From contig JBGAON010000001.1 of NCBI GenBank assembly GCA_044221725.1, positions 806,954-870,953 on the forward strand: DNA of 64,000 bases, given 5' to 3'. Position 1 is the stretch's first letter; each line of letters begins with the position of its first letter. This document shows positions 20,715 through 37,842 of the stretch, one piece after another. This stretch comes from Elusimicrobiota bacterium (GTDB lineage Bacteria > Elusimicrobiota > Elusimicrobia > F11). The position numbers were made by a program, and so were the translations under genes. The notes under the pieces were generated by a model that was given only the letters and a program-made list of their open reading frames with translations, was not told the origin of the DNA and did not search any database.

Positions 20715-21593
20715 ATGGAATTTCTCAATCTCAAGCGCCGCCTCGATCAGGCACTTAAAGAAGACGCAGCTTCCACCGATGTCACCACGCTCGCCATTCC
20801 CGGGATTAAATCGATTCGTCGAAAGGCCATTCTTTTGGCAAAAGAGTCCGGCGTTTTTTGTGGTGGATTTCTCGTGCCCCATATTTTCCAATCGCGAGAC
20901 AAAAAGGCGCGTGCTCGCTTCCTGAAAAAAGATGGAGCGTCGGTAAGGAAAGGCGAGAAAGTTCTTGCGATTGAATGCGGTGCCGCGACCCTTCTCAGCG
21001 GTGAGCGCTTATTTCTAAATCTCGTTTGTCACCTGAGTGGCATCGCGTCCCAAACGTATCGCTATGTGCAAGCCGTGCGCGGAACGTCGGCGAAAATTTT
21101 GGAGACCCGAAAAACAACGCCGCTGTGGCGGGATCTCGAAAAATACGCGGTGCGCTGCGGTGGCGGCGAGAATCATCGGTTCTCGTTGGGCGATGCGATT
21201 CTTGTGAAAGATAACCACTTGCAGCTTTTGCGCGAACGCGGACTCTCTGTTAAAGATGTTTATTCTCGACGAAAAGAACAGTTCTTAAAACGCAAGAACT
21301 TGAAATTCCTTGAGGTTGAAGCAACGACGATCCCCGAGGTTTGGGATGCCATTAAGGCTCGGCCCGACATCATTTTGTTGGACAACATGCCGTTAAATCG
21401 TTTAAAAGCAGCTATTGTCCTCATCAAGGCGGCCCGCGAGGCGCTCAATTCACCAAAGCCCGCTATTGAAGTTTCTGGCGGTATCACGCTCGCGACCGCA
21501 CGCACATACGCCACATTGGGTGTGGACCGAATTTCGGTTGGCGCCCTTACGCACTCAGCAAAAGCATTGGATTTTTCATTGGAGGTCATTTAA
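20715..21593 (+). CDS. nadC: Quinolinate phosphoribosyltransferase
   Basis: TRKTTP, NHR, VKDNH, LLDNM, EVSGGI, SVGALTHS. Confidence 0.95.
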   Translation: MEFLNLKRRLDQALKEDAASTDVTTLAIPGIKSIRRKAILLAKESGVFCGGFLVPHIFQSRDKKARARFLKKDGASVRKGEKVLAIECGAATLLSGERLFLNLVCHLSGIASQTYRYVQAVRGTSAKILETRKTTPLWRDLEKYAVRCGGGENHRFSLGDAILVKDNHLQLLRERGLSVKDVYSRRKEQFLKRKNLKFLEVEATTIPEVWDAIKARPDIILLDNMPLNRLKAAIVLIKAAREALNSPKPAIEVSGGITLATARTYATLGVDRISVGALTHSAKALDFSLEVI

Positions 21594-22375
21594 TGGGAGT
21601 TTCCGAGCTTTACCAAGTTATCGGCCGGTTGCAGGCGGATTTGCCGTGGCTCACCGTCGCCAAATTTTTCGACAAAGTTGACTCCACGCAAAACCGTGTT
21701 CTGCAGTTTCTTCCAAAAGAGGGTGAAGGGACCGTTCTTATTCTTGCGGAAACGCAGAGCAAAGGCGTCGGCCGTCAGGGGCGCACGTGGCATTCCCCGA
21801 CGGGTGGTCTGTGGTTCTCATTGGCGTTACCGCTCAAATCCATGCCTCTCAACCAGGTGGCTCCTTTTTCGATGGTAGCCGCGCTGCAAATTGCGACCGC
21901 CCTCAAAGAGGTCAACGCGCTCGAATGCAACATCAAATGGCCGAACGATATTCTCTATCAAGGGAAAAAAGTGGCCGGACTTTTGCTGAATACGACCACC
22001 AAGTTTCGCAAACCATGGCTCGTCATCGGTGTCGGAATTAACGTGAACAACGAAATTCCTTCTGAAATTTCGAAAATTGCGACATCTATCGCCGCGATCC
22101 GGAAGCAATCGCAGGGTCGCTCCCGACTGTTGGAATCTGTTTTGTCCGCCATTCACACAGCCTGGGCAGAATTCGATCGCACGGGGTTTGGTCCGTACCA
22201 AAAAGCCGTCGAAGCCCGGCTTGTCGGCGTCGGAAAACCGGTGCAAATCAAAGTGGGCTCGAAGACCGTTCAGGGAACGATGAAGGCCGTTGACCCTCAA
22301 GGAAACCTTCTGTTAGACTCCGCAGGCGGTCCCAAAACCGTGCAGGCTGGCGAAATCGTCGGACAACCCGCCTAA
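21593..22375 (+). CDS. birA: Biotin-protein ligase without an N-terminal HTH
   Basis: DSTQ, QSKGVGRQGRTW, KWPND, KVAG, GVGIN. Confidence 0.9.
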   Translation: MGVSELYQVIGRLQADLPWLTVAKFFDKVDSTQNRVLQFLPKEGEGTVLILAETQSKGVGRQGRTWHSPTGGLWFSLALPLKSMPLNQVAPFSMVAALQIATALKEVNALECNIKWPNDILYQGKKVAGLLLNTTTKFRKPWLVIGVGINVNNEIPSEISKIATSIAAIRKQSQGRSRLLESVLSAIHTAWAEFDRTGFGPYQKAVEARLVGVGKPVQIKVGSKTVQGTMKAVDPQGNLLLDSAGGPKTVQAGEIVGQPA

Positions 22376-22404
22376 CCTCGCCAATCACACAAGAGAGAGT
22401 TTAA

Positions 22405-23397
22405 TTGGCGCAAGTGACGTCGTCCCACAACATTGGACTTGGATTATTGGACCGTATCGGCAACACGCCGTTGTTGCGGCTCGAGAGGTTTAATCACTGG
22501 CTCGGCGATCACGGTTCGCAGATTCTCGGAAAAGCGGAGTTTTGCAACCCGGGGGGATCCGTCAAAGATCGAGCGGCACGCCACATGATTTTGGGCGCCA
22601 TCCGATCGGGCGAGCTGACCAAAGACAAAATAATTTTGGATTCGAGCAGTGGAAACACCGGCATCGCTTACGCGATGATCGGTACGGCGCTCGGCTATCA
22701 CGTTGAACTCTGCATTCCTGAAAATGCCGAAACCAAAGCGCGCATCAGCGAAGCGTTTGGCGCGAAGGTGATTTACACGGATCCGCTGGAGGGCTCCGAC
22801 GGTGCGATCGTGAAAGCTCAAGAACTTTTCCACAAAAACCCGGGTCGTTATTACATGCCCGACCAGTACAACAACCCGAACAATTGGAAAGCGCATTACG
22901 ACACAACCGCCGAAGAAATTTGGAAGCAAACCGAAGGCCGCATCACGCACTTTGTGGCCGGTATCGGAACCTCCGGAACATTGATGGGCACCGGCCGCCG
23001 GTTGAAGGAACTGAACCCGAAAATTGAAATTGTGGCCGTGGAACCCTCGAACCCGCTTCATGGTTTAGAAGGATTGAAACACATGGCGTCGTCGATCGTG
23101 CCGGGAATTTACGACCCGAAGGTGCACGACAAAAAAGTCAGCGTTCATACCGAAGATGCGTACGAAATGTGCTGCCGTTTGGCGCGCGAAGAAGGGGTTC
23201 TTGTTGGTTTTTCGTCGGGTGCGGCGCTTCAAGGCGCATTTGAAACAGCCCTTGGGAAAAAAGATGCGGTGGTTGTCACTGTGTTTTGCGATGCGGGTGA
23301 GCGCTACATGAACTCGCGGTTCTGGGAAGAGATGGTCAACTATTTTGAGAAATATTGGAAAACGCACGATCAGCTGAAGCCCGCGCGCGCTCACTAG
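22405..23397 (+). CDS. PLP-dependent cysteine synthase family protein (CysM-like)
   Basis: IGNTPL, NPGGSVKDR, SSGNTG, GIGTSGT, SSGA. Confidence 0.9.
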   Translation: MAQVTSSHNIGLGLLDRIGNTPLLRLERFNHWLGDHGSQILGKAEFCNPGGSVKDRAARHMILGAIRSGELTKDKIILDSSSGNTGIAYAMIGTALGYHVELCIPENAETKARISEAFGAKVIYTDPLEGSDGAIVKAQELFHKNPGRYYMPDQYNNPNNWKAHYDTTAEEIWKQTEGRITHFVAGIGTSGTLMGTGRRLKELNPKIEIVAVEPSNPLHGLEGLKHMASSIVPGIYDPKVHDKKVSVHTEDAYEMCCRLAREEGVLVGFSSGAALQGAFETALGKKDAVVVTVFCDAGERYMNSRFWEEMVNYFEKYWKTHDQLKPARAH

Positions 23398-23400
23398 ACG

Positions 23401-23892
23401 ATGTCGGCCTCGAGCGTGGTCATTCCAAAAGACGTGTACGACGGTATTGCCCGGTGGGCCGAAAAGGCCTATCCGAACGAGGGGTGCGGACTTCTTATTG
23501 GAAATTTTCAGAACGGTGGTGTGAAAGAAGTTGTGCGGTTAGCGCCCCTTTCCAACGAATTATTAGTAAAACAGGTAACCGGAGCCCCCACGTTACCAAC
23601 CGAACGCCAAGGCGCTGGCGCTGGAAAACGCGAATTTCTCATGAGTCCGTCGGAATTTAACGCCGAAACACTGCGCGCCGAAAAAGAAGGACTCGATGTT
23701 GTTGGTGTGATTCACACGCATCCGAATCATCCGCCGCGTCCGAGCCAAGTGGATGCCTCGCAACCGTTTCTTGCGCAGTGGTCAAACATTATTGTCGCCG
23801 TGCACGACGGAAAAACGGTGGATATGAAATCGTGGTTCCGTGAATTGGACAGTGACCCATTTGTTGAAGAAGAAATACGCATCAAATCCTAA
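23401..23892 (+). CDS. JAB/JAMM (M67, Mec-like) metallopeptidase
   Basis: YPNEGCGLL and HTHP...PSQVD JAMM motif. Confidence 0.88.
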   Translation: MSASSVVIPKDVYDGIARWAEKAYPNEGCGLLIGNFQNGGVKEVVRLAPLSNELLVKQVTGAPTLPTERQGAGAGKREFLMSPSEFNAETLRAEKEGLDVVGVIHTHPNHPPRPSQVDASQPFLAQWSNIIVAVHDGKTVDMKSWFRELDSDPFVEEEIRIKS

Positions 23893-23904
23893 AAGGAGTC
23901 TTGC

Positions 23905-25677
23905 ATGTCTGCGGTATCGGAAGTGAAAGAAAAGAACGTGACGTTGGCACCGGAAGTTGAAGAAGAAATTGTTCGCTTTGAAGAAAACATTAAAGCGATG
24001 CGATCCGGTGAAATGGACCCGAACGAGTTCAAAAAATTTCGCTTAAACAACGGCGTTTATGGAATCCGCCACGAAACCGACCGGCACATGATCCGCATCA
24101 AATGCCCGCACGGTGAAATTACCGCGGACCAACTCGATGTGGTGGCAAACGTTACCGAAGAATACACGCGCACAAAAATTGCGCACGTGACCACGCGCCA
24201 AGCGATCCAAATCCACCATGTTTTGTTGGACAACGTTCCCACCTTGCTGCGCCGTCTTGCCAATTGCGGTCTCACGTCGCGTGAAGCGTGCGGCAATACC
24301 GTTAGAAACGTCACAAAAACCCCGTTCGCCGGACTTCTTGCCGACGAAGTGTTTGATGTGACCCCGTGGGCCGAAGCTATTTTTCGTCATTTCTTGAGAA
24401 ACCCCGCGGTCCAAAACTTCCCCCGCAAATTCAAAATCGCTTTCTACGGCGGCGGCGCCGAAGACATTGCTTACACAGCGATTCACGATCTTGGCTATGT
24501 GGCCGCGAAGCGTGTCGTGAACGGGAAAGAAGAGAAAGGTTTCCGTGTGTATGTCGGTGGCGGTTTGGGCGCATCGCCCCAAGCGTCCATTCTCCTCGAA
24601 GAATTCACGCCGCTCACCGAGTTTTTCTCGACCGCTGACGCGATCACGCACATTTTCGATCGTCATGGTGACCGCAAAGACAAATTTCACGCACGTCTTA
24701 AGTTTGTCGTGAAGAAGTTCGGTGAAGACGCGTTCCGAAAAATGGTGATCGAGGAGCGCTCTCAGGTTCGCGCCACGCGCGCCGGCGGTTTCAAATGGAA
24801 TTTTCCACAAGAGACGCCTCTGGTAGCGCCCGTTCTTACGCAGAACATCGATACGAACGTGAAGCCCGATGCCGACTTCGAGCTTTGGCGGAAGACAAAC
24901 GCGCTCGCTCAGAAGCAGAATGGATACTCAATGGCGATCGTTGTGACGCCGCTCGGAGATATTTCGGTTCCGCAGATGAGAACTCTGGCCACTATTGCCC
25001 GTAAGTTTAACGGTGGGCGTTTGCGTACGATGGTTCAGCAAAATATGTTTTTGCCGTGGATCAAAAACGAACATTTGGTTCCGCTGTTCGCGGAATTAAA
25101 AGCGGCCGGTCTCGCGACAGCGGGAGCGCTCCGCTTGTCGGACGTGACGCGGTGCCCCGGAGCGGACACATGCCAGATTGCGGTGACAAAGTCGCGCGGT
25201 CTCGCCGGAGCCATTCTTGAACTTTTCAAAAACGGATTGGCGGCGGACAGCGACATGAAAGACTTGCACATCAAAATTTCGGGTTGCACAAACTCGTGCG
25301 GCCAGCATCACATCGGTAACATTGGATTTTTTGGCACGTATCGAAAAATCAATGGACACGACGTTCCGCATTACCAGTTGCTCATTGGTGGGGACGTGAA
25401 AGAGGGAAGTGCGAAGTTCGGTCAACCAATAACGGCCATACCAGCGAAGCGCGCTCCGGAAGCTGTGAAGCAGCTTGTCGCGCTTTACAAGAAGGAAAAA
25501 GTGGGCACCGAACGTTTTGTTGACACGATGAATCGCCTTGGCCGTAACCGAATTAAAGAGGAAGTGGAACAATTCCGCTCGCTGCCACCGTTTGAACAAA
25601 ATTCGGACATGTATTATGAGTGGGGCGAGTTTCACGAATTCAAAGCCGAGATCGGTCAAGGAGAATGCGCCGCTTAG
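23905..25677 (+). CDS. Siroheme nitrite/sulfite reductase (ferredoxin type)
   Basis: TTRQAIQ, ACGNTVRN, PRKFK, CPGADTC and SGCTNSCG cysteine motifs. Confidence 0.9.
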   Translation: MSAVSEVKEKNVTLAPEVEEEIVRFEENIKAMRSGEMDPNEFKKFRLNNGVYGIRHETDRHMIRIKCPHGEITADQLDVVANVTEEYTRTKIAHVTTRQAIQIHHVLLDNVPTLLRRLANCGLTSREACGNTVRNVTKTPFAGLLADEVFDVTPWAEAIFRHFLRNPAVQNFPRKFKIAFYGGGAEDIAYTAIHDLGYVAAKRVVNGKEEKGFRVYVGGGLGASPQASILLEEFTPLTEFFSTADAITHIFDRHGDRKDKFHARLKFVVKKFGEDAFRKMVIEERSQVRATRAGGFKWNFPQETPLVAPVLTQNIDTNVKPDADFELWRKTNALAQKQNGYSMAIVVTPLGDISVPQMRTLATIARKFNGGRLRTMVQQNMFLPWIKNEHLVPLFAELKAAGLATAGALRLSDVTRCPGADTCQIAVTKSRGLAGAILELFKNGLAADSDMKDLHIKISGCTNSCGQHHIGNIGFFGTYRKINGHDVPHYQLLIGGDVKEGSAKFGQPITAIPAKRAPEAVKQLVALYKKEKVGTERFVDTMNRLGRNRIKEEVEQFRSLPPFEQNSDMYYEWGEFHEFKAEIGQGECAA

Positions 25678-25703: not shown

Positions 25704-25732
25704 TTGACAGGCTGGAAACTTTGTCTTATGAT
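25704..25732 (+). promoter_or_regulatory. Near-consensus sigma70 promoter upstream of the histone-nuo operon
   Basis: TTGACA (25704-25709), 17-bp spacer, TATGAT (25727-25732), preceded by a T-tract. Confidence 0.75.
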
Positions 25733-25844
25733 CCAATTGTTTTTAACGCGTCTTCCTTAACCTCGACTGCTTAAAACCCTAAACATTTAATCCAAACAAC
25801 GTTCCTCTTCATTTATATGAACAGGCACAAAAGGAGCTGGCGTA

Positions 25845-26024
25845 ATGGCTGAGATCTATGTTGTTGTGAGCAAAGTGAAGAAGAAAGTGAAAGAAGCGGG
25901 ATTTCGTACCGGAAAAGATTACACCGATGCGCTTTCTCAGAAAATTGAACAAATTGTGAACGCCTCCGTTGAAAAAGTGAAAGCGGATGGCAAAAAGAAA
26001 ACCCTGGGGGCCGAAGACCTTTGA
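25845..26024 (+). CDS. Bacterial histone-fold protein (Bd0055-like), 59 aa, absent from the ORF track
   Basis: Hand translation gives MAEIYVVVSKVKKKVKEAGFRTGKDYTDALSQKIEQIVNASVEKVKADGKKKTLGAEDL*. SD AAGGAG at 25831-25836. VVVSKVKK N-terminus and KADG.KT....D C-terminus match the pattern of Bdellovibrio-type histones as recalled. Confidence 0.88.
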   Translation: MAEIYVVVSKVKKKVKEAGFRTGKDYTDALSQKIEQIVNASVEKVKADGKKKTLGAEDL

Positions 26025-26734
26025 GCCCAGCCGCTCTCCCTTCCGCAGAATCGACAACCCGGCCCATTCGCGAGATGTTCGACGCGTTGGTGCCCGAGTA
26101 CGATCGGTTTAATCATCTGAGCAGTTTGGGTCTTGATATTGTTTGGCGGCGCGAAGTCGTCAAGTTATTCAAAGCAAACGATCTGATTCTCGATGTCGGA
26201 ACAGGAACGGGCGATCTCGCCAGAGAATTGGCCACACACGGCGCGCATGTGATTGGAGTCGATTTCTCAGTAAACATGTTGGCCGCAGCGAAAGAGAAAA
26301 TGAAAAACGTCCCGAATGTAACTTTTGAAATGGCCAAGGCTGATGAATTGCCATACGAACCCCGAATGTTTGATGGTATTACGTCGTCGTTCGTCATTCG
26401 TAACCTTCATCATGGCGGTGTGCTCGCTCAGAGTTTCCGAGAATTTTACCGCGTGTTAAAGGTCGGCGGGCAAATGGTTCATCTCGAGCTTTCAAAGCCG
26501 CCCGCGCGGTTCTTGTCGTGGGGACATCAAAAGTACATGAAGTACATCCTTCCTATTATCGGATGGGCCAATTTCCGAAGCCGCTGGCCAAAAGACTACC
26601 TTTCAAAAACCATCGAAAAATTCCCAGTTCCAAGCGTCCTGTGCCAGCAAATGCGTTGGGCTGGTTTTGAACAAGTGAGCCATTATCCGCTCGCCGGTGG
26701 AATTGCCGGACTTTATGTGGGGCGCCGATGCTGA
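26021..26734 (+). CDS. UbiE/MenG-family quinone C-methyltransferase
   Basis: MFD..YDRFNH.SS.G.D..WRR and LDVGTGTGD. TTG start overlaps the histone stop (TTGA). Confidence 0.85.
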   Translation: MSPAALPSAESTTRPIREMFDALVPEYDRFNHLSSLGLDIVWRREVVKLFKANDLILDVGTGTGDLARELATHGAHVIGVDFSVNMLAAAKEKMKNVPNVTFEMAKADELPYEPRMFDGITSSFVIRNLHHGGVLAQSFREFYRVLKVGGQMVHLELSKPPARFLSWGHQKYMKYILPIIGWANFRSRWPKDYLSKTIEKFPVPSVLCQQMRWAGFEQVSHYPLAGGIAGLYVGRRC

Positions 26735-27090
26735 ACGTTGCTGAATACGCAGGCCTTTTGATCTTCCTTGCCATCGGCATCGCGTTTGTCGGCGGAGTTT
26801 TGGCGACCAACTATTTGTTGCGCGAACGCGGAACGGACCCTCTTCGCAAAAGCATTTACGAGTGCGGTATGGAGACCATCGGCACGCCCTACGTATCTCC
26901 GAATATTCGCTTCTACGTTTTTGCTCTCGTGTTTGTTGTTTTCGACATTGAAGCTGTGTTCTTGTTGCCCTGGGCCGTTAAGTTCAAGGAGCTCGGTCTC
27001 ACCGGTTTTATTGAAATCGTTTCGTTCATTGCGATTCTTTTCGTTGCGTTTGTTGTGGCATGGCGAAAAGGCGCGTTAAAGTGGGAATAA
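26728..27090 (+). CDS. nuoA: NADH-quinone oxidoreductase subunit A
   Basis: YECG, FDIE, GALKWE; three TM helices. Confidence 0.95.
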
Positions 27091-27100
27091 AGGAAAGGAT

Positions 27101-27691
27101 ATGAGCAACAGTTTGGTTTTGGATAAGCTGCCGATGATTCGGCAGTACAAGGTGCCCGGAGGAGAATTCATCCTCACATCCGTCGATTTCTTTATCGACT
27201 GGGCCCGCAAATCTTCTATTTGGCCTCTCACGTTTGGACTTGCCTGCTGCGCGATCGAAATGATGGCCGCGTACGCATCGCGTTATGATTTTGACCGCAT
27301 TGGCGTCATTCCACGCCCGACGCCACGCCAAGCCGATCTCATGATTATAGCCGGTACCGTTGTGAAGAAAATGGCGCCCGCGGTTGAAACCCTTTATCAC
27401 CAAATGCCGGAACCACGGTTTGTAATTTCGATGGGCGCCTGTTCCAACTGTGGCGGACCTTACTACGATTCTTACTCGGTGTCGAAAGGCGTCGACAAGG
27501 TAATTCCCGTGGACGTTTATGTTCCCGGTTGCCCGCCGCGCCCCGAAGCGCTTTACACGGCAATTGTTGCTTTGCAGCAGAAGATCGATAAATATTACGA
27601 CGCTGGAAAACGCATCGTTCGCCCCGAAACTCCGACGGCCCAAGTTCTGAAGGAGATCAACGAAGCTGCCATTCGCGCCCGCGCCTCCTAA
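27101..27691 (+). CDS. nuoB: NADH-quinone oxidoreductase subunit B
   Basis: [23 protein letters not shown]. Confidence 0.96.
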
Positions 27692-27697
27692 AATTCC

Positions 27698-28237
27698 ATG
27701 TACAACGCCGAAATCTGTCAGCAACTCACGAAGAAGTTTTCCGACGTCACCATTGTTCCGGTGCCGGAAAAATATGTGCGCGACCCTGAACCTCAGGTTC
27801 GTGTGCCGGCCGCGAAACTTATTGAAGTGTGCAAGTTTTTGAAAACGTCTCCGGAGATGGCGTTTGATTTGCCGATCCAGATGACCGGTGTTGATTACAT
27901 CAAAGACAATTTGTTTGAACTCGTTTACAATCTGTACTCCACAAAGAAAAAGCACGGGCTCGTTTTGAAAGTGCAAATTTCGCGCGCCGATGCCTCGGTT
28001 GATTCGGTGACCCCAATTTGGAGCGGAATGGATTGGCAAGAACGCGAAGTGTTTGACCTGATGGGCATCACGTTTAAAGGTCATCCCAATTTGAAGCGCA
28101 TTATGATGTGGGACGGATTCCCTGGGTATCCGTTGCGCAAAGATTACGTTCACATCACCGACAAATACGATTCCGGTCTCGAAGTTGGCACGCCGGGTCT
28201 TGATGAAAAGGGCGTTCCTGCCGGAGCGAAACATTAA
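27698..28237 (+). CDS. nuoC: NADH-quinone oxidoreductase subunit C
   Basis: EREVFDLMGI.F.GHP and PLRKDY. Confidence 0.95.
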   Translation: MYNAEICQQLTKKFSDVTIVPVPEKYVRDPEPQVRVPAAKLIEVCKFLKTSPEMAFDLPIQMTGVDYIKDNLFELVYNLYSTKKKHGLVLKVQISRADASVDSVTPIWSGMDWQEREVFDLMGITFKGHPNLKRIMMWDGFPGYPLRKDYVHITDKYDSGLEVGTPGLDEKGVPAGAKH

Positions 28238-28238
28238 T

Positions 28239-29405
28239 ATGGCAACCGAAACAATTCCACCGACGGGTTTGGCGAAAGGCCCGGTTTTCGAAACAAAGAT
28301 CGAACAAGTCGGCGAAAACGAAATGTTGCTGAACCTCGGTCCGCAGCACCCGTCCACGCACGGTGTGTTGCGCGTCGTCCTTAAGTTGGACGGTGAAGTG
28401 ATCACCGATGCCGAATGCGATTTGGGATACCTGCACCGCGGCGTCGAGAAGCTCGCCGAGCACCGCACCTATCCAATGATCATTGTTCTCTCGGATCGCG
28501 ACGATTATCTGTCAGCGATGAACAACAACTGGGGTTTCTGTCTCGCGGTTGAAAAACTTTTGAAAGTCGAAATTCCGGCGCGCGCGGATTTTATTCGCGT
28601 TATAGTGGGCGAATTAAACCGTATTGCCTCGCACATGGTGTTCTACGGCACGTTTGGAATCGATATCGGTGCGTTCACGCCGTTCTTGCATGCGTTTGGT
28701 CGCGACCGCGAAGAAATTTTGGATTTGTTTGAAGAGATCTGTGGCGCGCGGATCACGTACAACTTCGTGCGCGTTGGCGGCGTGATGCTGGACGTTCCCG
28801 AAGGTTGGATCGGCCGCGTTAAAGCGTTCGTGGAACGCATGAAGCCGCGCCTCGAAGAATACGACGGCCTTTTGACCTACAATCCGATTTTCATGGACCG
28901 CACGATTGGCGTCGGAAAACTTCCGGCCCAAACGGCGATCGATATTGGCGTGACAGGTCCCGCGCTCCGTGGAAGTGGCGTCGCGACGGACTTGCGTAAA
29001 GACCATCCGTACGGTCTGTACGGAGAATTCAAATTTGATGTGCCTGTTGGGAAAAACGGCGATTGCTACGACCGGTTCATGGTACGGCGTCGGGAAATGA
29101 GCGAGTCCCTTAAAATTATTGAACAGGCGTGCGACAAATTTCCAGAAGGGCCAACGATGGGCAAAGTGGCGAAAGTGTTTCGCCCGGGCGCTGGCGAAGT
29201 TTACGCTCAAATCGAAGGGCCGCGCGGGTGGTTGGGCTATTACATCGTTTCCGATGGAACCGATCGTCCGTACCGGTTGCACATTCGTCCGCCATCGTTC
29301 GTGAATTTGCAGGCGCTTAAGGAACTCGTCAAGGGTTGGAAAGTGGCCGATGTTATTGCGATCTTGGGATCGCTCGATTTCGTGTTAGGAGAAGTGGACC
29401 GATGA
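28239..29405 (+). CDS. nuoD: NADH-quinone oxidoreductase subunit D
   Basis: GPQHPSTHGVLR, GYLHRG, GEVDR. No NiFe CxxC motifs. Confidence 0.96.
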   Translation: MATETIPPTGLAKGPVFETKIEQVGENEMLLNLGPQHPSTHGVLRVVLKLDGEVITDAECDLGYLHRGVEKLAEHRTYPMIIVLSDRDDYLSAMNNNWGFCLAVEKLLKVEIPARADFIRVIVGELNRIASHMVFYGTFGIDIGAFTPFLHAFGRDREEILDLFEEICGARITYNFVRVGGVMLDVPEGWIGRVKAFVERMKPRLEEYDGLLTYNPIFMDRTIGVGKLPAQTAIDIGVTGPALRGSGVATDLRKDHPYGLYGEFKFDVPVGKNGDCYDRFMVRRREMSESLKIIEQACDKFPEGPTMGKVAKVFRPGAGEVYAQIEGPRGWLGYYIVSDGTDRPYRLHIRPPSFVNLQALKELVKGWKVADVIAILGSLDFVLGEVDR

Positions 29406-30691
29406 GTGATGGCGTAGCAATTAACCCAGTCCCCGCACCGGGAACACCGCCGCCTCCGCCGCCGGCGGCTCCAAAAGCCGATGCGCGCATGACCGCGTAT
29501 GTGGAGGCATGGAACGCGAAGAAAGTTCGCATGCAGAAGAGTTGGCAGCGGTCCGCCATTTGGTTGACAGCGATTTTCGCGGTGGCCGCTGGCGCCGTCA
29601 TTGCCGTCGGTGAGCTGCAGCCCATCTTCCGGGCGGGTCTAGCGACGCTCGTTGATTTGTGTGCGAAGCACAATATTCCGGCCATTGTTCCTGTCATCGT
29701 TTCGTTCACGGTTCCGGCCGCGATTCTCAATTTAATGATGCAAGCGTGTCCCGGCGTTCTTGTGTGGTGGGAAAGAAAAGTGGCCGCGCACATGCAGCTG
29801 CGTCTTGGTCCCATGGATGTCGGCGGCTGGCACGGCTGGGCCCAAACGATTGCGGACGGCGTTAAGCTGCTGCTCAAAGAAGTCATTGAACCAACCGGTG
29901 TCGACAAATGGGTGTTCCGACTCGCTCCGGTGATTGTCATTCTTCCTTGTTATATGGCGTTTGCGCCGCTTCCGTTCGGAACCGGTCTCGTCGCCCTCGA
30001 TTTCGATATTGGTCTCGTATACGTCATGGCCGTTTCGGGTTTGTCCACGATCGGCATTCTTATGGCGGGCTGGGGCTCCGCGAACAAATTTTCGATGTTC
30101 GGTGGTTTGCGCGCGGCGGCGCAGGTTGTGTCGTTTGAAATTCCGCGTGTTCTTTCGGTCGTGCCCGTCGTGATGTGGGCCGGTACCCTTTCGTTGACGC
30201 AGATCGCGAGTGCGCAATCCGTTCCGATGGGTGGTTGGTTTCCACGGTGGTTCATTTTCTATCCGATTATTGGGCAAGTCAGTTTCATTGTTTATTTGAT
30301 CACAACGATTGCGGAAACGAACCGCGTGCCGTTCGATATTCCGGAAGCGGAATCCGAGCTTACGGCCGGGTTCCACACCGAATACGGTGGAATGATGTTT
30401 GCGATCTTCTTTATGGCCGAATACGCGTACGTGCTGATCGGCTCGGTGCTGGGCGTGGCGCTTTTCTTTGGGGGCGGATCCCCGCTCTTCCCATTCCTTA
30501 AATTTATTCCGTCGTGGGCCTGGTTCATTGGAAAAACGTTGGCGCTTATCTTTATTTTCTTGTGGTCGCGATGGACCTTTCCGCGCCTGCGCGTTGACCG
30601 TGTGATGGATCTGTGCTGGAAGATCTTTATTCCGTGGACGCTTATTAATATTTTGATCGCGGGTGGTGTAATGCTGTGGAGGAACCACTAA
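29402..30691 (+). CDS. nuoH: NADH-quinone oxidoreductase subunit H with a long N-terminal extension
   Basis: ERK...Q.R.GP, ADGVKL, AETNRVPFD.PEAESEL, PRLRVD. Confidence 0.93.
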   Translation: MSDGVAINPVPAPGTPPPPPPAAPKADARMTAYVEAWNAKKVRMQKSWQRSAIWLTAIFAVAAGAVIAVGELQPIFRAGLATLVDLCAKHNIPAIVPVIVSFTVPAAILNLMMQACPGVLVWWERKVAAHMQLRLGPMDVGGWHGWAQTIADGVKLLLKEVIEPTGVDKWVFRLAPVIVILPCYMAFAPLPFGTGLVALDFDIGLVYVMAVSGLSTIGILMAGWGSANKFSMFGGLRAAAQVVSFEIPRVLSVVPVVMWAGTLSLTQIASAQSVPMGGWFPRWFIFYPIIGQVSFIVYLITTIAETNRVPFDIPEAESELTAGFHTEYGGMMFAIFFMAEYAYVLIGSVLGVALFFGGGSPLFPFLKFIPSWAWFIGKTLALIFIFLWSRWTFPRLRVDRVMDLCWKIFIPWTLINILIAGGVMLWRNH

Positions 30692-31215
30692 TGTTTTGGG
30701 ATTTGAAAAAAGCTTGGCAGGTCGCCGCCGGCACGCTGAAGGGCATGATGATTACGCTCAAATATTATTTCAAGCCGTCGCTCACGTTCCAATTCCCGCG
30801 CGAGCGCAAACCGATTTCCGAACGTTTCCGCGGCGTGCTGTCGTTCCATCCGGAAATCTGTATTTCGTGCGAAATGTGCGTGCGCGTGTGCCCGTCGGAC
30901 GTTATCTCAATGGAATGGGTGCGCAACGAAGAAACCAAGAAAAAGGATCTAAAGTGGTACCAGATTGATTTTGCGAAATGCAACGTGTGCCGTCTGTGCG
31001 AAGAAGCCTGTCCCACCAAAGTGAAGTCCATCCATCATTCGAACGAATACGAAGTGGTGTTTGAAGACCGAAAAGATTTTATTGTGCGTTGGGGGCCGAC
31101 CACACAAGACACCGTTGAACAAGGACCAAAAGCGCAAGAGTGGTACCGCTACATGCCGGACGGCCGCAAAGAGAAAATCGAAAAATCCCAAACCACTGAG
31201 GTTTCCGCATCATGA
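30691..31215 (+). CDS. nuoI: NADH-quinone oxidoreductase subunit I
   Basis: Two CxxCxxCxxxCP 4Fe-4S motifs. Confidence 0.94.
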   Translation: MFWDLKKAWQVAAGTLKGMMITLKYYFKPSLTFQFPRERKPISERFRGVLSFHPEICISCEMCVRVCPSDVISMEWVRNEETKKKDLKWYQIDFAKCNVCRLCEEACPTKVKSIHHSNEYEVVFEDRKDFIVRWGPTTQDTVEQGPKAQEWYRYMPDGRKEKIEKSQTTEVSAS

Positions 31216-31706
31216 TTCAAACCGCAATCTTTGCCTTCTTGGCCGCTTTGGTTTTGATTCCGGCGCTGTTGGTCGTCACTGTTAAGAACGTTTTTCATTC
31301 GGCGCTTTGGTTGGTTCTGTCGCTCAGCGGCGTCGCCGGAATGTACGCGATGCTCGCCGCGGATTTCTTGTTCGCCGTGCAGTTGCTCGTCTATATCGGC
31401 GGCGTGATGATTCTTTTGCTGTTCGTGGTTCTTTTGTCCGGTAAACCGTCCGATTGGGCCGGCCGCCAGGTGAACGAAAAAGCGTGGGCGGCCGGACTTT
31501 TCTCGGTGTTTCTTGTCTCTGCGCTAGGAAGTGTGGTCATTGATTGGCCTCTCGTTATTGTTGATTCCAAACCGCTTTTGACCACTGGGCGCCTTGGAGA
31601 ATTGCTCGTCCACGGAATGGCGCTTCCGCTCGAAGTCATTTCGTTGGCGCTTGTCGCCGCGCTCGTTGGAGCGATTTATTTTTCAGTAAAAAGGAAATCC
31701 TCATGA
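31212..31706 (+). CDS. nuoJ: NADH-quinone oxidoreductase subunit J
   Basis: HSALWL, QLLVYIGGV; five TM helices. Confidence 0.93.
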   Translation: MIQTAIFAFLAALVLIPALLVVTVKNVFHSALWLVLSLSGVAGMYAMLAADFLFAVQLLVYIGGVMILLLFVVLLSGKPSDWAGRQVNEKAWAAGLFSVFLVSALGSVVIDWPLVIVDSKPLLTTGRLGELLVHGMALPLEVISLALVAALVGAIYFSVKRKSS

Positions 31707-32014
31707 TGCTGGGCCCCAAACATTTCTTGATCGTCGGTGCGATCATGTTCGCGATCGGCGTGTACGGTGTTCTCGCGCGTCGCAATATCGTTGGTGTGCT
31801 TATGTCGATTGAGATCCTTTTTAATGCGGCCGGAATAAATTTTGTTGCGTTTAATCGATACTTGCACCCGGACGGGCTTTGGGGCCAAGGATTCGTGCTT
31901 TTCATCATTGCGTTGGCCGCGGCGGAAGCTGTGGTGGGCCTGGCGCTCGTGCTCGCCATTTATCGTGGCGCACGCACTGTTTTGGTGGAGCGACTGAATC
32001 TTTTGCAGGGATGA
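31703..32014 (+). CDS. nuoK: NADH-quinone oxidoreductase subunit K
   Basis: RRN...MSIE and AAAEAVVGLA. Confidence 0.95.
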   Translation: MMLGPKHFLIVGAIMFAIGVYGVLARRNIVGVLMSIEILFNAAGINFVAFNRYLHPDGLWGQGFVLFIIALAAAEAVVGLALVLAIYRGARTVLVERLNLLQG

Positions 32015-32808
32015 GTTTTAAATCGTTTTTAAATTGGATTCAAAACGATGGGTCCGACAACAAAGGGTCGAAGCAAAACGAATCAATTGATTGGACGGAG
32101 AAGAGACGCGATAACCGACTGGACCTTGCAACAGACAAACCGTTAAGGGTCCATTTGATGAGCGAAGAGGCCGAAGGGAAATTGGCCAGCACGTTGGTCG
32201 CGACGGTTCGGAACGTGAGTGTTCGCGGTTGTGGTTTGGTTTTTGAATCGGCCGCGGATTGTCAGCGTTTGAAAGCAAAACAAGTTTTGTTGGCATCGTT
32301 GGCCGTGGATGATTTCCCGATTCCGTTGCAGGTGGAAGTTGTTCGTTTGATAAATGACAAGGAAGCAGCAATCCGTTTTCGTCCGCCGTTTCCGCGGGAG
32401 CTTGAGAAGCTAGAAAAATTTTTGGAACCCCGCTGTTTGGGGCGGTCGCTTCGAGAGATTGATCCGGCCAAGTTGCAGAAAGATCAGCAGAAAGGGTTCC
32501 GCTGGTTTCAGGGCGTGAATGAAACGCATTTGTTTTCGTGGATGTCTCCGGAGACAAAACAGATTTCGCAGCAGCAATTGGTGTTTCTGGACCACGTGGT
32601 CGAATGGAAGGAAGGCGACGTGGTCCGAAGCGGCATGATTCGCCCTGACGAGCGACGCGCTCGCGGCGAGGTGGGATGGGTGAAATCGGATCTGCTCGAT
32701 TTTGATGCGGTGGCCGACGCGGCGGTGGTGGCGCAAGCGCGCACCATCGTTGAATCGTGTGCGATTGATGGCGACATCAAAAATACGTTTTTGAAGAAAA
32801 TTTCTTAG
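32011..32808 (+). CDS. PilZ-domain protein with an unknown C-terminal domain
   Basis: RRDNR (RxxxR) and NVSVRG (D/NxSxxG). ATGA overlap with nuoK. Confidence 0.75.
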   Translation: MSFKSFLNWIQNDGSDNKGSKQNESIDWTEKRRDNRLDLATDKPLRVHLMSEEAEGKLASTLVATVRNVSVRGCGLVFESAADCQRLKAKQVLLASLAVDDFPIPLQVEVVRLINDKEAAIRFRPPFPRELEKLEKFLEPRCLGRSLREIDPAKLQKDQQKGFRWFQGVNETHLFSWMSPETKQISQQQLVFLDHVVEWKEGDVVRSGMIRPDERRARGEVGWVKSDLLDFDAVADAAVVAQARTIVESCAIDGDIKNTFLKKIS

Positions 32809-32821
32809 CAAAGGAAAACAA

Positions 32822-34813
32822 ATGTCTGGTGAAGCACTGCTTAGTCACAGTTACTTGATTGCGCTCGCGCCGCTGGCGGCGTTCGCTATTATTCTTACGT
32901 TCCGAAATGTGCTGGGTTTGCAAGGCGCCTGGGTTGGCGCGCTGGCGATGTTTTACGGATTCGTGCATTCCGCTCTCATTGCGGGTGGGATTTTTACTGG
33001 CTCAATTCATTTGCCGAGCGAAGGTTTGCAGGGACACTTCTTTGAATCGGCGATGACCTGGTTCTCGGTGGGCAATTTTGATTTCCGGTTGGGCGTTTTA
33101 ATCGACGGGCTTTCCTCGATGATGCTCGTCGTCGTGACACTCGTCTCCTTCCTCGTACAGATGTATTCCATCTCGTACATGCACGATCATAAGCGGTTTG
33201 GTCGCTACTTCGCCTACGTTAATCTTTTTACGTTTTCGATGTTGGTGCTCGTTTTAGCGAACGACATGTTGCAGTTCTTCATCGGATGGGAACTCGTTGG
33301 CCTTTGTTCTTACCTATTAATCGGATTCGACTTCGAGCGCGAAGCCGCCGCGTACGCCGGCCGCAAAGCGTTTCTTACCACAAAGTTTGGTGACCTTGGC
33401 TTTTATGTCGCGCTCTACGCGATCTTTAATTATCTCGGCACTTTCAATATTCCGCTGTTGCATCAGAATTACGAAAACATTGCCGCGATGCAGTATCCGG
33501 CATGGGTTGTGGCCATGATTCCGGTGTTCTTGTTTTTCGGCGCAATGGGCAAATCCGCACAGGTTCCTTTGCACGTTTGGCTGCCGGATGCAATGGAAGG
33601 CCCGACGCCCGCATCCGCATTGATCCACGCGGCAACGATGGTTGCCGCCGGTGTTTATTTGGTCGCACGTGTATTCTTTTTGTTTGAAGCGTCTCACTTG
33701 GCGATGGACGTTGTGGCGTGGGTGGGGGTTTCGACCGCGGTGATTGCGGCGAGCATGGGCGTTGTCTCAAACGACATCAAACGCGTGCTCGCGTTTTCCA
33801 CGGTGAGTCAGCTGGGTTTTATGATGACGGCGCTTGGTTGCGGCGGATACGAAGCCGGTATGTTTCATTTGACCACGCACGCGGCTTTCAAAGCTTTGCT
33901 TTTCTTGTGCGCCGGTAGCGTGATTCACGCGGTGCACACGAACGACATGTGGAAGATGGGTGGCCTTAAAACCGCGATGCCAATTACGTTCGCAACGTAT
34001 CTGTTTGGCACACTCGCGATTGCCGGATGTCCGCCGTTCGCCGGTTTTTACTCAAAGGAAGAAGTTCTCTCGGCGGCCTACCAGCACAATCCGATCATCT
34101 TCGCGTTACTGGCTTTTGCAGCGCTCCTCACCTCCTTTTATATGTTTCGCTCTCTGTTCCTTACGTTTTTCGGAGTTCCGCGGGATAAACATGCGTTTCA
34201 ACACGCGCACGAGTCGCCGTTGTTGATGACGGTGCCATTGATGGTGCTTGGCGTGTTGGCCGTGGTTCTCGGTTTCGTGCTCAATTACGATAATAATCTC
34301 GCGCACTTTATTTCGTGGGGTGCGCACGCCGAAGAAGCGCATCACGGCGGTCACGTGGTCATGTACGCATCGTTGTCGGCGTTTGCGCTCGGCCTTGTCG
34401 GTGCTTATTTCGTTTATATGTCGCAGCCACCCAAATACGAAATGCTCGGGCAACGTTTTGCGATTCCACACCGAATTCTCACGCGCCGTTACATGTTTGA
34501 CGAGCTTTATCTGTGGTTCATCGCGAAAGTTTATTACCCGGTCACAAATTGGTTTGCGAAGACCGATTACGATTTCGTGGACCAATTTATTGTGGACGGC
34601 GTTGGCCGTGTCGGGAAGAGTTTTTCGTGGGTTAGCAGTTTGTTTGATGGCACCATCATTGACCGTCTGCTGGTCGATGGACAGTCCGACATCGCCAATT
34701 TGTTCGGCAAACTATTTCGTCGGGCGCAGTCCGGACTCGCGCAGAGTTATCTTTTTTGGATGATCTTTGGCCTTGGGGCAATGGTGGCCTGGATCGCTCA
34801 TAATTTCAAATAG
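32822..34813 (+). CDS. nuoL: NADH-quinone oxidoreductase subunit L
   Basis: GWELVG, KSAQVPLHVWLPDAMEGPTP, HAAFKALLF. Confidence 0.96.
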   Translation: MSGEALLSHSYLIALAPLAAFAIILTFRNVLGLQGAWVGALAMFYGFVHSALIAGGIFTGSIHLPSEGLQGHFFESAMTWFSVGNFDFRLGVLIDGLSSMMLVVVTLVSFLVQMYSISYMHDHKRFGRYFAYVNLFTFSMLVLVLANDMLQFFIGWELVGLCSYLLIGFDFEREAAAYAGRKAFLTTKFGDLGFYVALYAIFNYLGTFNIPLLHQNYENIAAMQYPAWVVAMIPVFLFFGAMGKSAQVPLHVWLPDAMEGPTPASALIHAATMVAAGVYLVARVFFLFEASHLAMDVVAWVGVSTAVIAASMGVVSNDIKRVLAFSTVSQLGFMMTALGCGGYEAGMFHLTTHAAFKALLFLCAGSVIHAVHTNDMWKMGGLKTAMPITFATYLFGTLAIAGCPPFAGFYSKEEVLSAAYQHNPIIFALLAFAALLTSFYMFRSLFLTFFGVPRDKHAFQHAHESPLLMTVPLMVLGVLAVVLGFVLNYDNNLAHFISWGAHAEEAHHGGHVVMYASLSAFALGLVGAYFVYMSQPPKYEMLGQRFAIPHRILTRRYMFDELYLWFIAKVYYPVTNWFAKTDYDFVDQFIVDGVGRVGKSFSWVSSLFDGTIIDRLLVDGQSDIANLFGKLFRRAQSGLAQSYLFWMIFGLGAMVAWIAHNFK

Positions 34814-34829
34814 ACAAAAGGAGCAAGTT

Positions 34830-36368
34830 GTGAATCTACCCGTATTATCGTTGTTAACGTTTCTGCCGCTGATTGGCGGCGTCATCATTATGTTTTCGAA
34901 CAAGGAAAACAGTTCGTTCCATCGAACCGTGGCAACGGTGTTTGCGGGTGTGACCTTCCTTCTTTCGCTGACGCTGTGGCCAAAGTTTGATACCGCGACC
35001 GCGGCAATGCAATTTGTCGAAAAAATTCCATGGATCCCAACGTTCAATATCGACTACCACATGGGTGTTGATGGCCTTTCTTTTCCGCTGGTTCTGCTCA
35101 CCACTTTCCTCAGCCTTATTTCGATCATCGCTTCTTACAGTGTCGACAAGCGCACGAAAGAATATTTCTTTTGGTTCATGTTGCTCGAAACCGGAATGCT
35201 GGGCCTCTTTGTCGCGCTCGACTTCTTTTTGTTCTACGTGTTTTGGGAAATCACCCTTGTCCCGATGTATTTCTTGATCGGCGTGTGGGGCGGTCCCAAG
35301 CGGGAATACGCGGCGATCAAATTCTTTTTGTTCACGCTGTTCGGTTCGGTGTTCATGTTGCTGAGCATGATCGCGCTTTATTTTGCGAGCGGCAGCGGAC
35401 TTCCGGGCAACGAACGTACGCTTGACCTTGTGAAGTTGGCCGAGCTGGCACACAACGGCCAGCTTCAACTCGTCGGTACCGGCGCCATGCTGATCTTCTT
35501 GGGCCTTTATCTTGCGTTTGCCATCAAAGTGCCCGCGTTTCCGTTTCACACATGGTTGCCACTCGCACACGTTGAAGCGCCGACCGCGGTCAGCGTGATT
35601 CTCGCGGGCGTGCTGCTTAAGATGGGAACCTATGGCATTCTCCGCGTTTGCTACCCAATCTTGCCCGAGCAAACGAAACTCTTTTTGCCGGTGTTGATTG
35701 TGATTGCGACGATCAATATCGTTTATGGTGCTTTTTGTGCGATGGCTCAGAAAGATATGAAACGCATGGTTGCTTATTCGTCCGTTAATCACATGGGGTA
35801 TTGCTTGCTTGGAATGGCGGCCATCATGGGAAATCCGAATGCGGCGCACGCCGGTCTCTCGGGCGCGGTGCTTCAAATGGTCAACCACGGTATCATTACC
35901 GGATCGCTGTTCTTGCTCGTGGGCGTGATTTACGACCGCGCGCACACGCGTGATATTGATGCGTTCGGTGGTCTCGCTTCGCGTACTCCGATTTTTGCGG
36001 GCATCATGATTATGCAAGCGATGGCCTCGCTCGGACTTCCGGGTCTCGCGGGATTTATTTCGGAATTCCTCGCGTTCCTTGGTGGTTTCGGCGGCAGCTT
36101 CGGCGGTTTCAATTTCAAAATCTGGACCGGAATTTCGGTCATCGGTATTTTGGTTACGGCCGCCTTTTTCTTGCGCATGGTCAAACTGGTTCTCATGGGC
36201 GAGTTTAATCCAAAATGGGAAGGTCACATGCCGGACGTCACGGCACGCGAACTCGTAACGCTCGTGCCGCTCATGGCGCTGACGCTCGCGCTCGGTGTGT
36301 ACCCGGCGTTCATGCTGCGTCTTATGGACACGTCGATCACGCAACTGATCAAAATGGTGGCGGGATAA
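34830..36368 (+). CDS. nuoM: NADH-quinone oxidoreductase subunit M
   Basis: FWE...PMY, IKVP.FPFHTWLP.AH.EAP, AYSSVNHMG. GTG start follows AAGGAG. Confidence 0.96.
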   Translation: MNLPVLSLLTFLPLIGGVIIMFSNKENSSFHRTVATVFAGVTFLLSLTLWPKFDTATAAMQFVEKIPWIPTFNIDYHMGVDGLSFPLVLLTTFLSLISIIASYSVDKRTKEYFFWFMLLETGMLGLFVALDFFLFYVFWEITLVPMYFLIGVWGGPKREYAAIKFFLFTLFGSVFMLLSMIALYFASGSGLPGNERTLDLVKLAELAHNGQLQLVGTGAMLIFLGLYLAFAIKVPAFPFHTWLPLAHVEAPTAVSVILAGVLLKMGTYGILRVCYPILPEQTKLFLPVLIVIATINIVYGAFCAMAQKDMKRMVAYSSVNHMGYCLLGMAAIMGNPNAAHAGLSGAVLQMVNHGIITGSLFLLVGVIYDRAHTRDIDAFGGLASRTPIFAGIMIMQAMASLGLPGLAGFISEFLAFLGGFGGSFGGFNFKIWTGISVIGILVTAAFFLRMVKLVLMGEFNPKWEGHMPDVTARELVTLVPLMALTLALGVYPAFMLRLMDTSITQLIKMVAG

Positions 36369-36369
36369 A

Positions 36370-37842
36370 ATGAAGCAACTCGTTTTCATTGCGCCGGAGA
36401 TTTTTCTTTCGGCGCTCGCGCTAGCGATTCTCGTTGGTGAAGCGTTTGCTCCGCAGCGGCGCAAATTCTGGGTTTCGATGGGTTTGTTGGGCTTGTCGTT
36501 GGCCGGCCTCTACCAAATGTATTTCTTTTCAACGGCCAGCATTCCTGGGGCGGCGAGCATTGGAGTGAGTCCGATCGTGAAGGGAGGGTGGATTCAGTAT
36601 CCGACAGTGTTCGGCATGATTGCCATTGATTCTCTCGCGATGTTTTTCAAGCTTGTCATCATTGCGACGGTAATCATGGTGCTGTGGTTGTCCGCTGATT
36701 ATCGTGAATTTACCGATAGCCCGATGGGCACCTACGTCTCCCTTTTGTTGCTGGCAACGGTTGGCATGATGTTCTGGGTGGGTTCAACCGATTTTCTCAT
36801 TGCGGTTATTTCGCTTGAGGTGCTCAGCATTAGTTCGTTTGTGCTCACGGGGTTCACTCTCAACCGCGCTTCTTCAACCGAAGGCGCCATTAAGTTTTTG
36901 CTGGTCGGAACATTTTCCACAGCGATCCTTTTGTTCGGTATCTCCTATTATTATGGTTACTTTGGTTCGACCAGTATTGATGCGTTGCTCAAGATGGGCG
37001 TGACCGGTCAGTCCTCGGATGTTGTTCTTAGCGTGGTTCTCATGTTCATTCTTGCCGGTCTCGGATTTAAATTGGCCATGGTTCCTTTCCATATGTGGGC
37101 GCCCGATGCTTATGAAGGGGCGCCGACACCGGTCACCGCATTTTTGTCGGTGGGTCCGAAAGCGGCCGCTGTTGGATTTTTGTTGCGTCTGTTGGCGAAT
37201 CACGGAGGTCTCGGCATCACGCCCGTTTTGGCCGTTCTTGCTGCGCTCACAATGACGGTTGGAAATCTGGGCGCGCTCACGCAAAAGAACGTGAAACGGA
37301 TGCTCGCGTACTCGTCCATTGCGCAGGTTGGATACATTCTCGTTGCCATTGTCGCCGGCGGAAGCCTGGGAAGCCAGGCGGCTATGGTGTACACCTTCAT
37401 TTATCTTTTCATGAACATGGGCCTGTTCGCGGGCCTTTTGATTCTGTCGAACCAGAACCATGTCGACGAATTGCCCACGTTTGCCGGCGTATCGGCCAAG
37501 TCGATGGGGTTTGCGTTGGCGATTGTGGTGTTCATGTTATCTCTCACGGGTATTCCACCGATGGGGGGATTTATTGGAAAATTTGCGATCTTCGCAGCGG
37601 TCATTCCGCATTCGAACTTGTTGTGGTTGGCGATCGTGGCGGTGATCAACAGCGTGGTATCGCTGTATTATTATTTTGGAATCGTTTATCAGATGTTCTT
37701 TAAGGAATCGAAAGAAACAGCGTCGATTAAATTTTCACCGGCGCTCACGAGTTGTTTGGTGGTGGCATTGGCCGTCACTCTGATTGCCGGCATCATGCCG
37801 AACCAAATCTTGGGTTGGGTAAGGAATATTTTAGGATCATAA
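36370..37842 (+). CDS. nuoN: NADH-quinone oxidoreductase subunit N
   Basis: EGAIKF, FKLAMVPFHMWAPDAYEGAPTP, KRMLAYSSI. Confidence 0.96.
   Translation: MKQLVFIAPEIFLSALALAILVGEAFAPQRRKFWVSMGLLGLSLAGLYQMYFFSTASIPGAASIGVSPIVKGGWIQYPTVFGMIAIDSLAMFFKLVIIATVIMVLWLSADYREFTDSPMGTYVSLLLLATVGMMFWVGSTDFLIAVISLEVLSISSFVLTGFTLNRASSTEGAIKFLLVGTFSTAILLFGISYYYGYFGSTSIDALLKMGVTGQSSDVVLSVVLMFILAGLGFKLAMVPFHMWAPDAYEGAPTPVTAFLSVGPKAAAVGFLLRLLANHGGLGITPVLAVLAALTMTVGNLGALTQKNVKRMLAYSSIAQVGYILVAIVAGGSLGSQAAMVYTFIYLFMNMGLFAGLLILSNQNHVDELPTFAGVSAKSMGFALAIVVFMLSLTGIPPMGGFIGKFAIFAAVIPHSNLLWLAIVAVINSVVSLYYYFGIVYQMFFKESKETASIKFSPALTSCLVVALAVTLIAGIMPNQILGWVRNILGS

Follow-up and report, generated by a model that had tools for sequence, protein, structure and literature searches.

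The histone gene and its surroundings

The window, which is the whole 64,000-nt stretch of DNA that was analysed, carries a short open reading frame (ORF) between a reductase gene and a string of complex I-like genes. The features of this locus are as follows.

23905–25677, plus strand: nitrite/sulfite reductase gene, upstream; varies among relatives
25704–25732, plus strand: putative sigma-70-type promoter, TTGACA-17-TATGAT, with 11 of 12 consensus matches, 112 nt before the ATG
25831–25836, plus strand: Shine-Dalgarno sequence AAGGAG, 8 nt before the ATG
25845–26024, plus strand: histone gene encoding a 59-aa α3-truncated singlet (P0001), from ORF translation, homologues, codon selection and models
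26021–26734, plus strand: UbiE/MenG-type methyltransferase gene, directly downstream; its longest ORF overlaps the histone stop, and an in-frame ATG lies at 26075
26728–37842, plus strand: complex I-like nuo string, A-B-C-D-H-I-J-K, an extra ORF, then L-M-N; nuoA assigned by Pfam PF00507, the other subunit names read from translations
31879–32808: extra ORF between the K-like and L-like nuo genes, without an NCBIfam match
37842–38819: polyprenyl diphosphate synthase gene, on the other flank of the nuo string

The 59-aa product contains 12 Lys and one Arg and has a net charge of +4. Its gene is present as a single copy in the 2.82-Mb genome, in which a broad profile found no second histone. The ORF is under purifying selection: the codon differences, synonymous to non-synonymous, are 26:1 against locus L002 and 30:2 against locus L003, an excess that shrinks to 17–26 against 11–15 for the farthest relatives among the 11 that were compared. 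A spurious ORF or an overlapping-frame artefact is ruled out by this excess and by the homologue scoring, in which 401 of 401 candidates qualified. Because a good Shine-Dalgarno sequence, a conserved near-consensus promoter and mostly synonymous codon differences coincide, 25845–26024 is a real gene. It lies in the genome of an Elusimicrobiota bacterium. The preliminary description had claimed an unannotated gene with a good ribosome-binding site and a near-consensus promoter about 110 nt upstream, and all three points hold. Standard annotation overlooks the gene, which is shorter than 60 aa, scores 14 bits with Pfam PF00808 (cut-off 21.4) and gave no match in an NCBIfam scan of its product.

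A single promoter site per 1.3 kb is at chance level (shuffle mean of 1.1 at the looser threshold of the local scan); sites with at least 11 of 12 matches number only 10 in the whole genome, the histone promoter among them. The –35 box is unchanged in nine of nine aligned close relatives, whose leaders vary. A site with at least 10 of 12 matches lies upstream of 36 of the 95 distinct orthologues; the opposite strand has one in 3 of 95 cases, and among 1900 shuffles the rate is 2.3%. An SD-like word precedes 94 of 95 orthologues, as counted with a loose pattern and no control. The spacer carries the word TTGT directly ahead of the –10 box in 9/9 sequences (window 25704–25732 and loci L002, L003, L006, L009, L026, L033, L039 and L082). 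In most of these nine, TTGT and the GACA of the –35 box form a short inverted repeat, which is possibly an operator. Contigs of the stretch occur at 99% identity or more in four RNA-library runs of one wastewater study. Two of the four contain the histone gene at a depth of 3–4, similar to its flanks, and such contigs cannot reveal transcription, strand or level.

On the same strand upstream, a run of nadC, birA, cysteine synthase, JAB protease and sulfite reductase genes spans 20715–25677, and several relatives have parts of this run in front of the histone gene. A tRNA-Met gene lies 40–244 nt upstream of the histone gene in 32 of 110 loci (for example L019, L023, L024 and L038); the window does not have it. 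There is no nuoE-F-G in the nuo string, and a search of the genome (94% complete) did not detect the NuoF family; from its gene content, the string would encode an 11-subunit type of complex I with another electron input. The extra ORF at 31879–32808 is presumably PilZ-like.

No terminator-like site was found on the plus strand between the histone and methyltransferase genes, and co-transcription of the histone gene with ubiE-nuo is plausible from this arrangement. The same arrangement admits the explanation that the protein serves specifically as partner or regulator to the complex I operon and is not a general chromatin protein. Within the class of the source genome, nuoA lies at most 4 kb downstream in 43 of the 49 histone-bearing genomes; counted over the named loci with enough flank, a nuo gene follows in 65 of 76. 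In the other classes the genes are linked in none of the 37 histone carriers, 35 of which have no strong nuoA match (E ≤ 1e-15). Conversely, 23 genomes with a strong nuoA match lack the histone gene; related genomes in these counts are not independent. Strict co-inheritance of the histone gene and nuoA is ruled out by these counts, as either gene occurs alone elsewhere. The link reflects a gene order handed down within one class and does not make either gene dependent on the other. The protein also has no extra domain and keeps the non-specific backbone contacts described below. A complex I-specific role is very improbable on this evidence; the place of the gene before ubiE-nuo would be an ancient arrangement within one class, and transcription probably reads through into the downstream genes. 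In loci where neither nuo nor ubiE is adjacent, a gene of about 1 kb lies between the histone gene and nuoA.

Histone fold and putative DNA-contact residues

HBb (Bd0055) of Bdellovibrio bacteriovorus is the best match among PDB sequences. The phmmer E-value is 4.4e-9 for HBb, followed by 4.5e-4 for HLp and 3.1e-3 for HTkC, so that HBb leads the next PDB matches by 4–5 orders of E-value. Profile searches left this order unchanged and also reached archaeal histones and H4. The structural elements assigned to the protein are as follows.

25866–25895, plus strand: helix α1, residues 8–17; S9, K10, K12 and K16 are the same as HBb DNA-contact residues
25905–25907, plus strand: Arg21 in loop L1, aligned with HTkC R22 and HBb N22; present in 94/94 orthologues
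25914–25988, plus strand: helix α2, residues 24–48, short type; contains Tyr26 and Lys44
25989–26003, plus strand: loop L2, G49-K50-K51-K52-T53, with a variable insertion at residue 50 and Lys51 at the clamp Arg position
26010–26021, plus strand: one-turn α3, residues 56–58, then C-terminal Leu59; E57 and D58 are invariant in 94/94 orthologues

Two AF2 models were compared. The second, built on an alignment with 35 diverse singlets, HBb-like rows among them, reaches a pLDDT of 85.5 and comprises α1 (8–17), α2 (24–48, 25 residues) and α3 (56–58, 3 residues). In a Foldseek search with this model, the top four rows are all HBb (TM 0.88–0.90, rmsd 0.9–1.4 Å, best E 6.6e-4). VIA-align places HLp and HBb equal at Z 8.1, with an rmsd of 1.2 Å over 56 residues for HLp and 0.8 Å over 55 for HBb, and HTkC at Z 7.5. 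A Z of 8.1 is modest for a small helical protein, and the tie between HLp and HBb means that the monomer fold cannot separate a dimer from a tetramer. In the first model, which was based on an alignment of 67 close relatives only, residues 52–59 fall below a pLDDT of 50 and α3 is not formed clearly; Foldseek returned nothing at E ≤ 0.001 for it, and the top six rows were nonetheless HBb and HLp.

As a class, α3 histones have an α3 of 3–4 residues and a shortened α2 (PMC11390915). The 59-aa protein combines a histone fold with a short α3 and a shortened α2. Its α2 carries a four-residue gap in the alignment with the archaeal histone fold; the ten-residue α3 and full-length α2 of HMf-type archaeal histones are absent, and the chain stops one residue past D58. 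That the protein is a histone is near certain. The Lys-rich three-helix pattern and the Bd0055-type assignment of the preliminary description were thus both correct, with 12 Lys in 59 aa, helices predicted at 8–17, 24–48 and 56–58, and a model that overlays HBb at TM 0.90.

HBb (PDB 8FVX, 8FW7, 8CMP, 9EZZ and 9F0E) is about 48–50% identical to the 59-aa protein. The two share the S9-K10 motif, K12, K16, K52, T53, D58, the short α2 and the one-turn α3. The 59-aa protein differs from HBb in R51 to K, the L2 insertion, an α1–L1 segment one residue shorter, N22 to R, R57 to E, S45 to K, T27 to Y and the lack of a C-terminal tail. Ten HBb residues are named as the main DNA contacts in PMC11317129. 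Measured against that list, six are identical here (S9, K10, K12, K16, K52 and T53) and four are changed (N22 to Arg21, R57 to Glu57, T8 to Val and S24 to Gly). Among 94 distinct orthologue sequences out of 110 loci, S9, K12 and K16 are each present in 94 and K10 in 93, and R21 is as invariant as E57 and D58. In HTkC, the counterpart of Arg21, R22, inserts into the minor groove (bioRxiv 10.64898/2025.12.06.692711).

The locus thus holds a real gene for a protein with a histone fold, a predicted homodimer and a conserved basic surface formed by α1 and the L1–L2 loops. By analogy with HBb, this surface would bind the minor-groove backbone without sequence preference through S9/K10/K12/K16, L1 (R21, T22, G23) and L2 (K52, T53). 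Arg21 may compensate for the lost HBb R57 contact.

The clamp lysine and the oligomeric state

In the RKTxxxxD motif, the 59-aa protein retains K52, T53 and D58 and replaces the Arg with Lys. The preliminary description had aligned its KKTLGAED stretch with the R-D clamp and placed a Lys at the Arg position. That placement is right, and the residue is Lys51; the alignment had overlooked the one-residue insertion in L2, where G49-K50-K51-K52-T53 stands against G-R-K-T in HBb once T53 and D58 are used as anchors. The accompanying suggestion that the Lys is a peculiarity which may disturb the fold finds no support in the relatives or in the model (TM 0.90). Of the 94 orthologues, 87 have K and 7, otherwise alike, have R at position 51; among 116 ungapped database matches the figures are K in 111 and R in 5 (4 of 120 were skipped for length shifts). 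Table S1 of PMC10627809 contains 22 Elusimicrobia proteins of the same clade, 19 with Lys and three with Arg at the clamp. Since 87/94 orthologues and 19/22 rows of that table carry Lys, Lys51 is the old, normal state of the clade, which is strongly conserved and spread through the phylum.

The orthologues with Arg51 retain D58 and Tyr26. They come from three or more families and are spread over a tree of low resolution, on which 6 changes are counted (a value as low arises in 63 of 500 shuffles). Made from 120 rows and 60 columns by a quick method that starred 4 of its 117 branches, this tree gives no date for the K/R changes, and Arg51 may have had a single origin. All seven Arg51 orthologues are 59 aa long and all eight Arg44 orthologues are 60 aa long, a pattern drawn from few, related sequences.

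By comparison with HBb, the Lys51–Asp58 salt bridge probably persists and would be weaker than with Arg. A more drastic outcome is that Lys opens the clamp and rearranges L2 and α3, with either a different DNA binding (for example, Lys51 turned towards DNA) or a loose C-terminus. The near-fixed combination of K51, the L2 insertion, G55 and E57 is compatible with such a change, as are the low confidence of residues 52–59 in the first monomer model and the predicted contact of Tyr26 with D58 and G55 of the partner chain in the four-copy prediction, which might be a substitute brace. HTkC offers a precedent: its clamp is rewired with the Arg contacting DNA, and the clamp can be lost without loss of the histone fold (bioRxiv 10.64898/2025.12.06.692711). 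Against an opened clamp, Arg occurs at position 51 in several families without any partner change at D58 or Y26, D58 is invariant, and the second model overlays HBb at 0.8–1.4 Å. An opened clamp is accordingly improbable compared with a weakened Lys51–Asp58 bridge. The other fixed changes (Arg21, Glu57, Lys44 and the L2 insertion) would be better candidates than Lys51 for a changed DNA-binding mode.

Prediction with four copies of the chain gave a homodimer score of 0.81, compared with 0.02 for the best of three controls; of proteins with solved structures, 20 of 30 pairs and 1 of 23 single chains attained the same mark. Contact agreement in the four-copy runs is at least 88% and partner pLDDT at least 84. 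The predicted contacts of residues 20–23 with 53–54 and of residue 30 with 37–38 are those of one histone-fold dimer. As the HBb dimer is already solved, the score may reflect no more than likeness to it. Confident contacts were formed between two copies only and do not include residues 44 and 47–51; unlisted residues are uncertain in this job, which gives no verdict on a tetramer.

Elusimicrobiota are placed in PMC11390915 among the phyla with bacterial dimers, not face-to-face histones, and bacterial dimers are described there as lacking the face-to-face residues R48 and N52 (profile numbering); the counterpart of that Arg here is residue 44, which is K or R throughout the clade. That category was defined by clustering, and the placement here is by best sequence match, HBb. 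The face-to-face Asn, two residues before the motif Arg, is absent: position 48 is Asp in the 59-aa protein, D/E in 87/94 orthologues and Asn in 0/94. The missing Asn is not decisive against a tetramer, since the tetrameric HTkC also lacks it. Taken together with the likeness to HBb, these data make an HBb-like dimer that bends DNA without sequence specificity the fairly probable state. Arguments on the other side are the four altered DNA contacts, with an invariant Glu in place of R57, and the resemblance of Lys44 and of a chain that stops at Asp+1 to face-to-face tetramers.

The face-to-face histones HLp (PDB 9QT0-2) and HTkC (9F2C), which have the same monomer fold at 27–32% identity, suggest a second arrangement: a face-to-face-like tetramer, stable or DNA-induced, that would wrap about 60 bp as they do, with Lys44 facing the carboxylate at the C-terminus of the other dimer. 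Position 44 is basic in 94/94 orthologues (K in 86, R in 8) and aligns with HTkC R45. According to bioRxiv 10.64898/2025.12.06.692711, the Ala mutant of R45 is a dimer, Lys occasionally occupies this position and should still support tetramers, and HTkC is tetrameric without the Asn and Asp of the motif. Arg21 corresponds to HTkC R22 in L1, and 42/94 orthologues, the 59-aa protein included, stop in the HTkC/HLp register without the tail of HBb. The other 52 of the 94 are one C-terminal residue longer, and the same preprint expects such an extension to break the Arg-carboxylate bridge. The HLp interface residues N53 and R55 (PMC12701072) are replaced by D/E and K, and an extra residue lies between the two positions; compared with the face-to-face histones, the protein has Lys for Arg at 44 and 51 and Asp for the Asn of HLp. 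Its sequence is far nearer HBb than HLp or HTkC, some Elusimicrobiota encode an additional paralogue that bears the complete face-to-face signature, and the phylum stands under bacterial dimers in PMC11390915. A tetramer is thus unlikely, although it deserves more weight than an opened clamp, and the HBb-like dimer is preferred.

In a broader proposal, the clade represents a third functional type of bacterial α3 histone, intermediate between HBb and the face-to-face kind. Its members would form a weak or DNA-induced tetramer (Lys44, free C-terminus), insert Arg21 into the minor groove, carry a rewired L2/α3 (the insertion, Lys51, Gly55, Glu57 and the Tyr26 brace) and have been lost more than once in small-genome lineages. 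We regard this combination as doubtful.

Distribution in the phylum and place among known histones

The best 80 of 172 confirmed genome loci are all titled Elusimicrobia/Endomicrobia, Ca. Obscuribacterium or plain 'bacterium'. A full-length orthologue is present in 86 of 301 phylum genomes, and a broader profile added no carrier; the count leaves out two weak partial matches in family f2 (G015 and G018), which lie inside a 589-aa frame. The gene was not found in f2 (0/88) or f14 (0/89), mostly small genomes, and is present in 2 of the 22 genomes of f3 and 84 of the remaining 102. Family f3 mostly retains nuoA despite its few histone genes. Several losses of the histone gene in the phylum are likely. 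Genome size and sampling point to the gut-associated Elusimicrobiaceae and Endomicrobiaceae as possible identities of these families.

The HU family is present in 289 of the 301 genomes, with two members in the source genome. Replacement of HU by the histone is thereby ruled out, and the histone adds to HU. A second histone match occurs in 17/301 genomes. The second singlet histones that were examined (L113:2015-2240, L114, L115 and L116) all have Arg and Asn ahead of RKT (4/4), which is the signature of face-to-face histones, and three of them are identical proteins. A library at 50% identity also holds many tandem doublets of α3-type folds (P0129, P0133, P0143, P0145, P0147, P0149 and P0154–P0158); the last fold of P0133 ends in the C-terminal motif of the Elusimicrobiota clade.

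The protein is not new, since Table S1 of PMC10627809, a 2023 survey, already contains 22 orthologues of this kind. The Elusimicrobia singlets in this table (for example OGR84132.1, OGR91400.1, OGR93324.1, OGS00328.1 and OGS47010.1) belong to the same clade, are 59–63 aa long and have the same L2 insertion and C-terminal motif; five of them are identical letter for letter to the proteins of loci L036, L041, L011, L019 and L048. The exact 59-aa sequence is absent from the table, which records only sequence, pI and length and contains neither a remark on the clamp nor an experiment. By sequence, the 59-aa protein belongs to this catalogued clade, and its Lys form was catalogued in 2023; as a discovery it adds little. 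The profile logos accompanying PMC11390915 may already contain the Lys form. A literature search, thin on subscription papers, found no paper on an Elusimicrobiota histone, its Lys clamp or its nuo link. As far as the available text of the cited literature extends, HBb and HLp are the only bacterial histones with experimental study, and no assays on any protein of the Elusimicrobiota clade are described.

The 59-aa protein would be a general nucleoid protein of Elusimicrobiota, an α3-truncated histone of the 'bacterial dimer' (HBb) kind. On the model of HBb, it would be strongly expressed from its own promoter, dimerise, and bend and compact DNA together with HU/IHF. Because residues of both kinds are mixed in its members, the clade is a natural test of DNA-bending dimers against wrapping tetramers.
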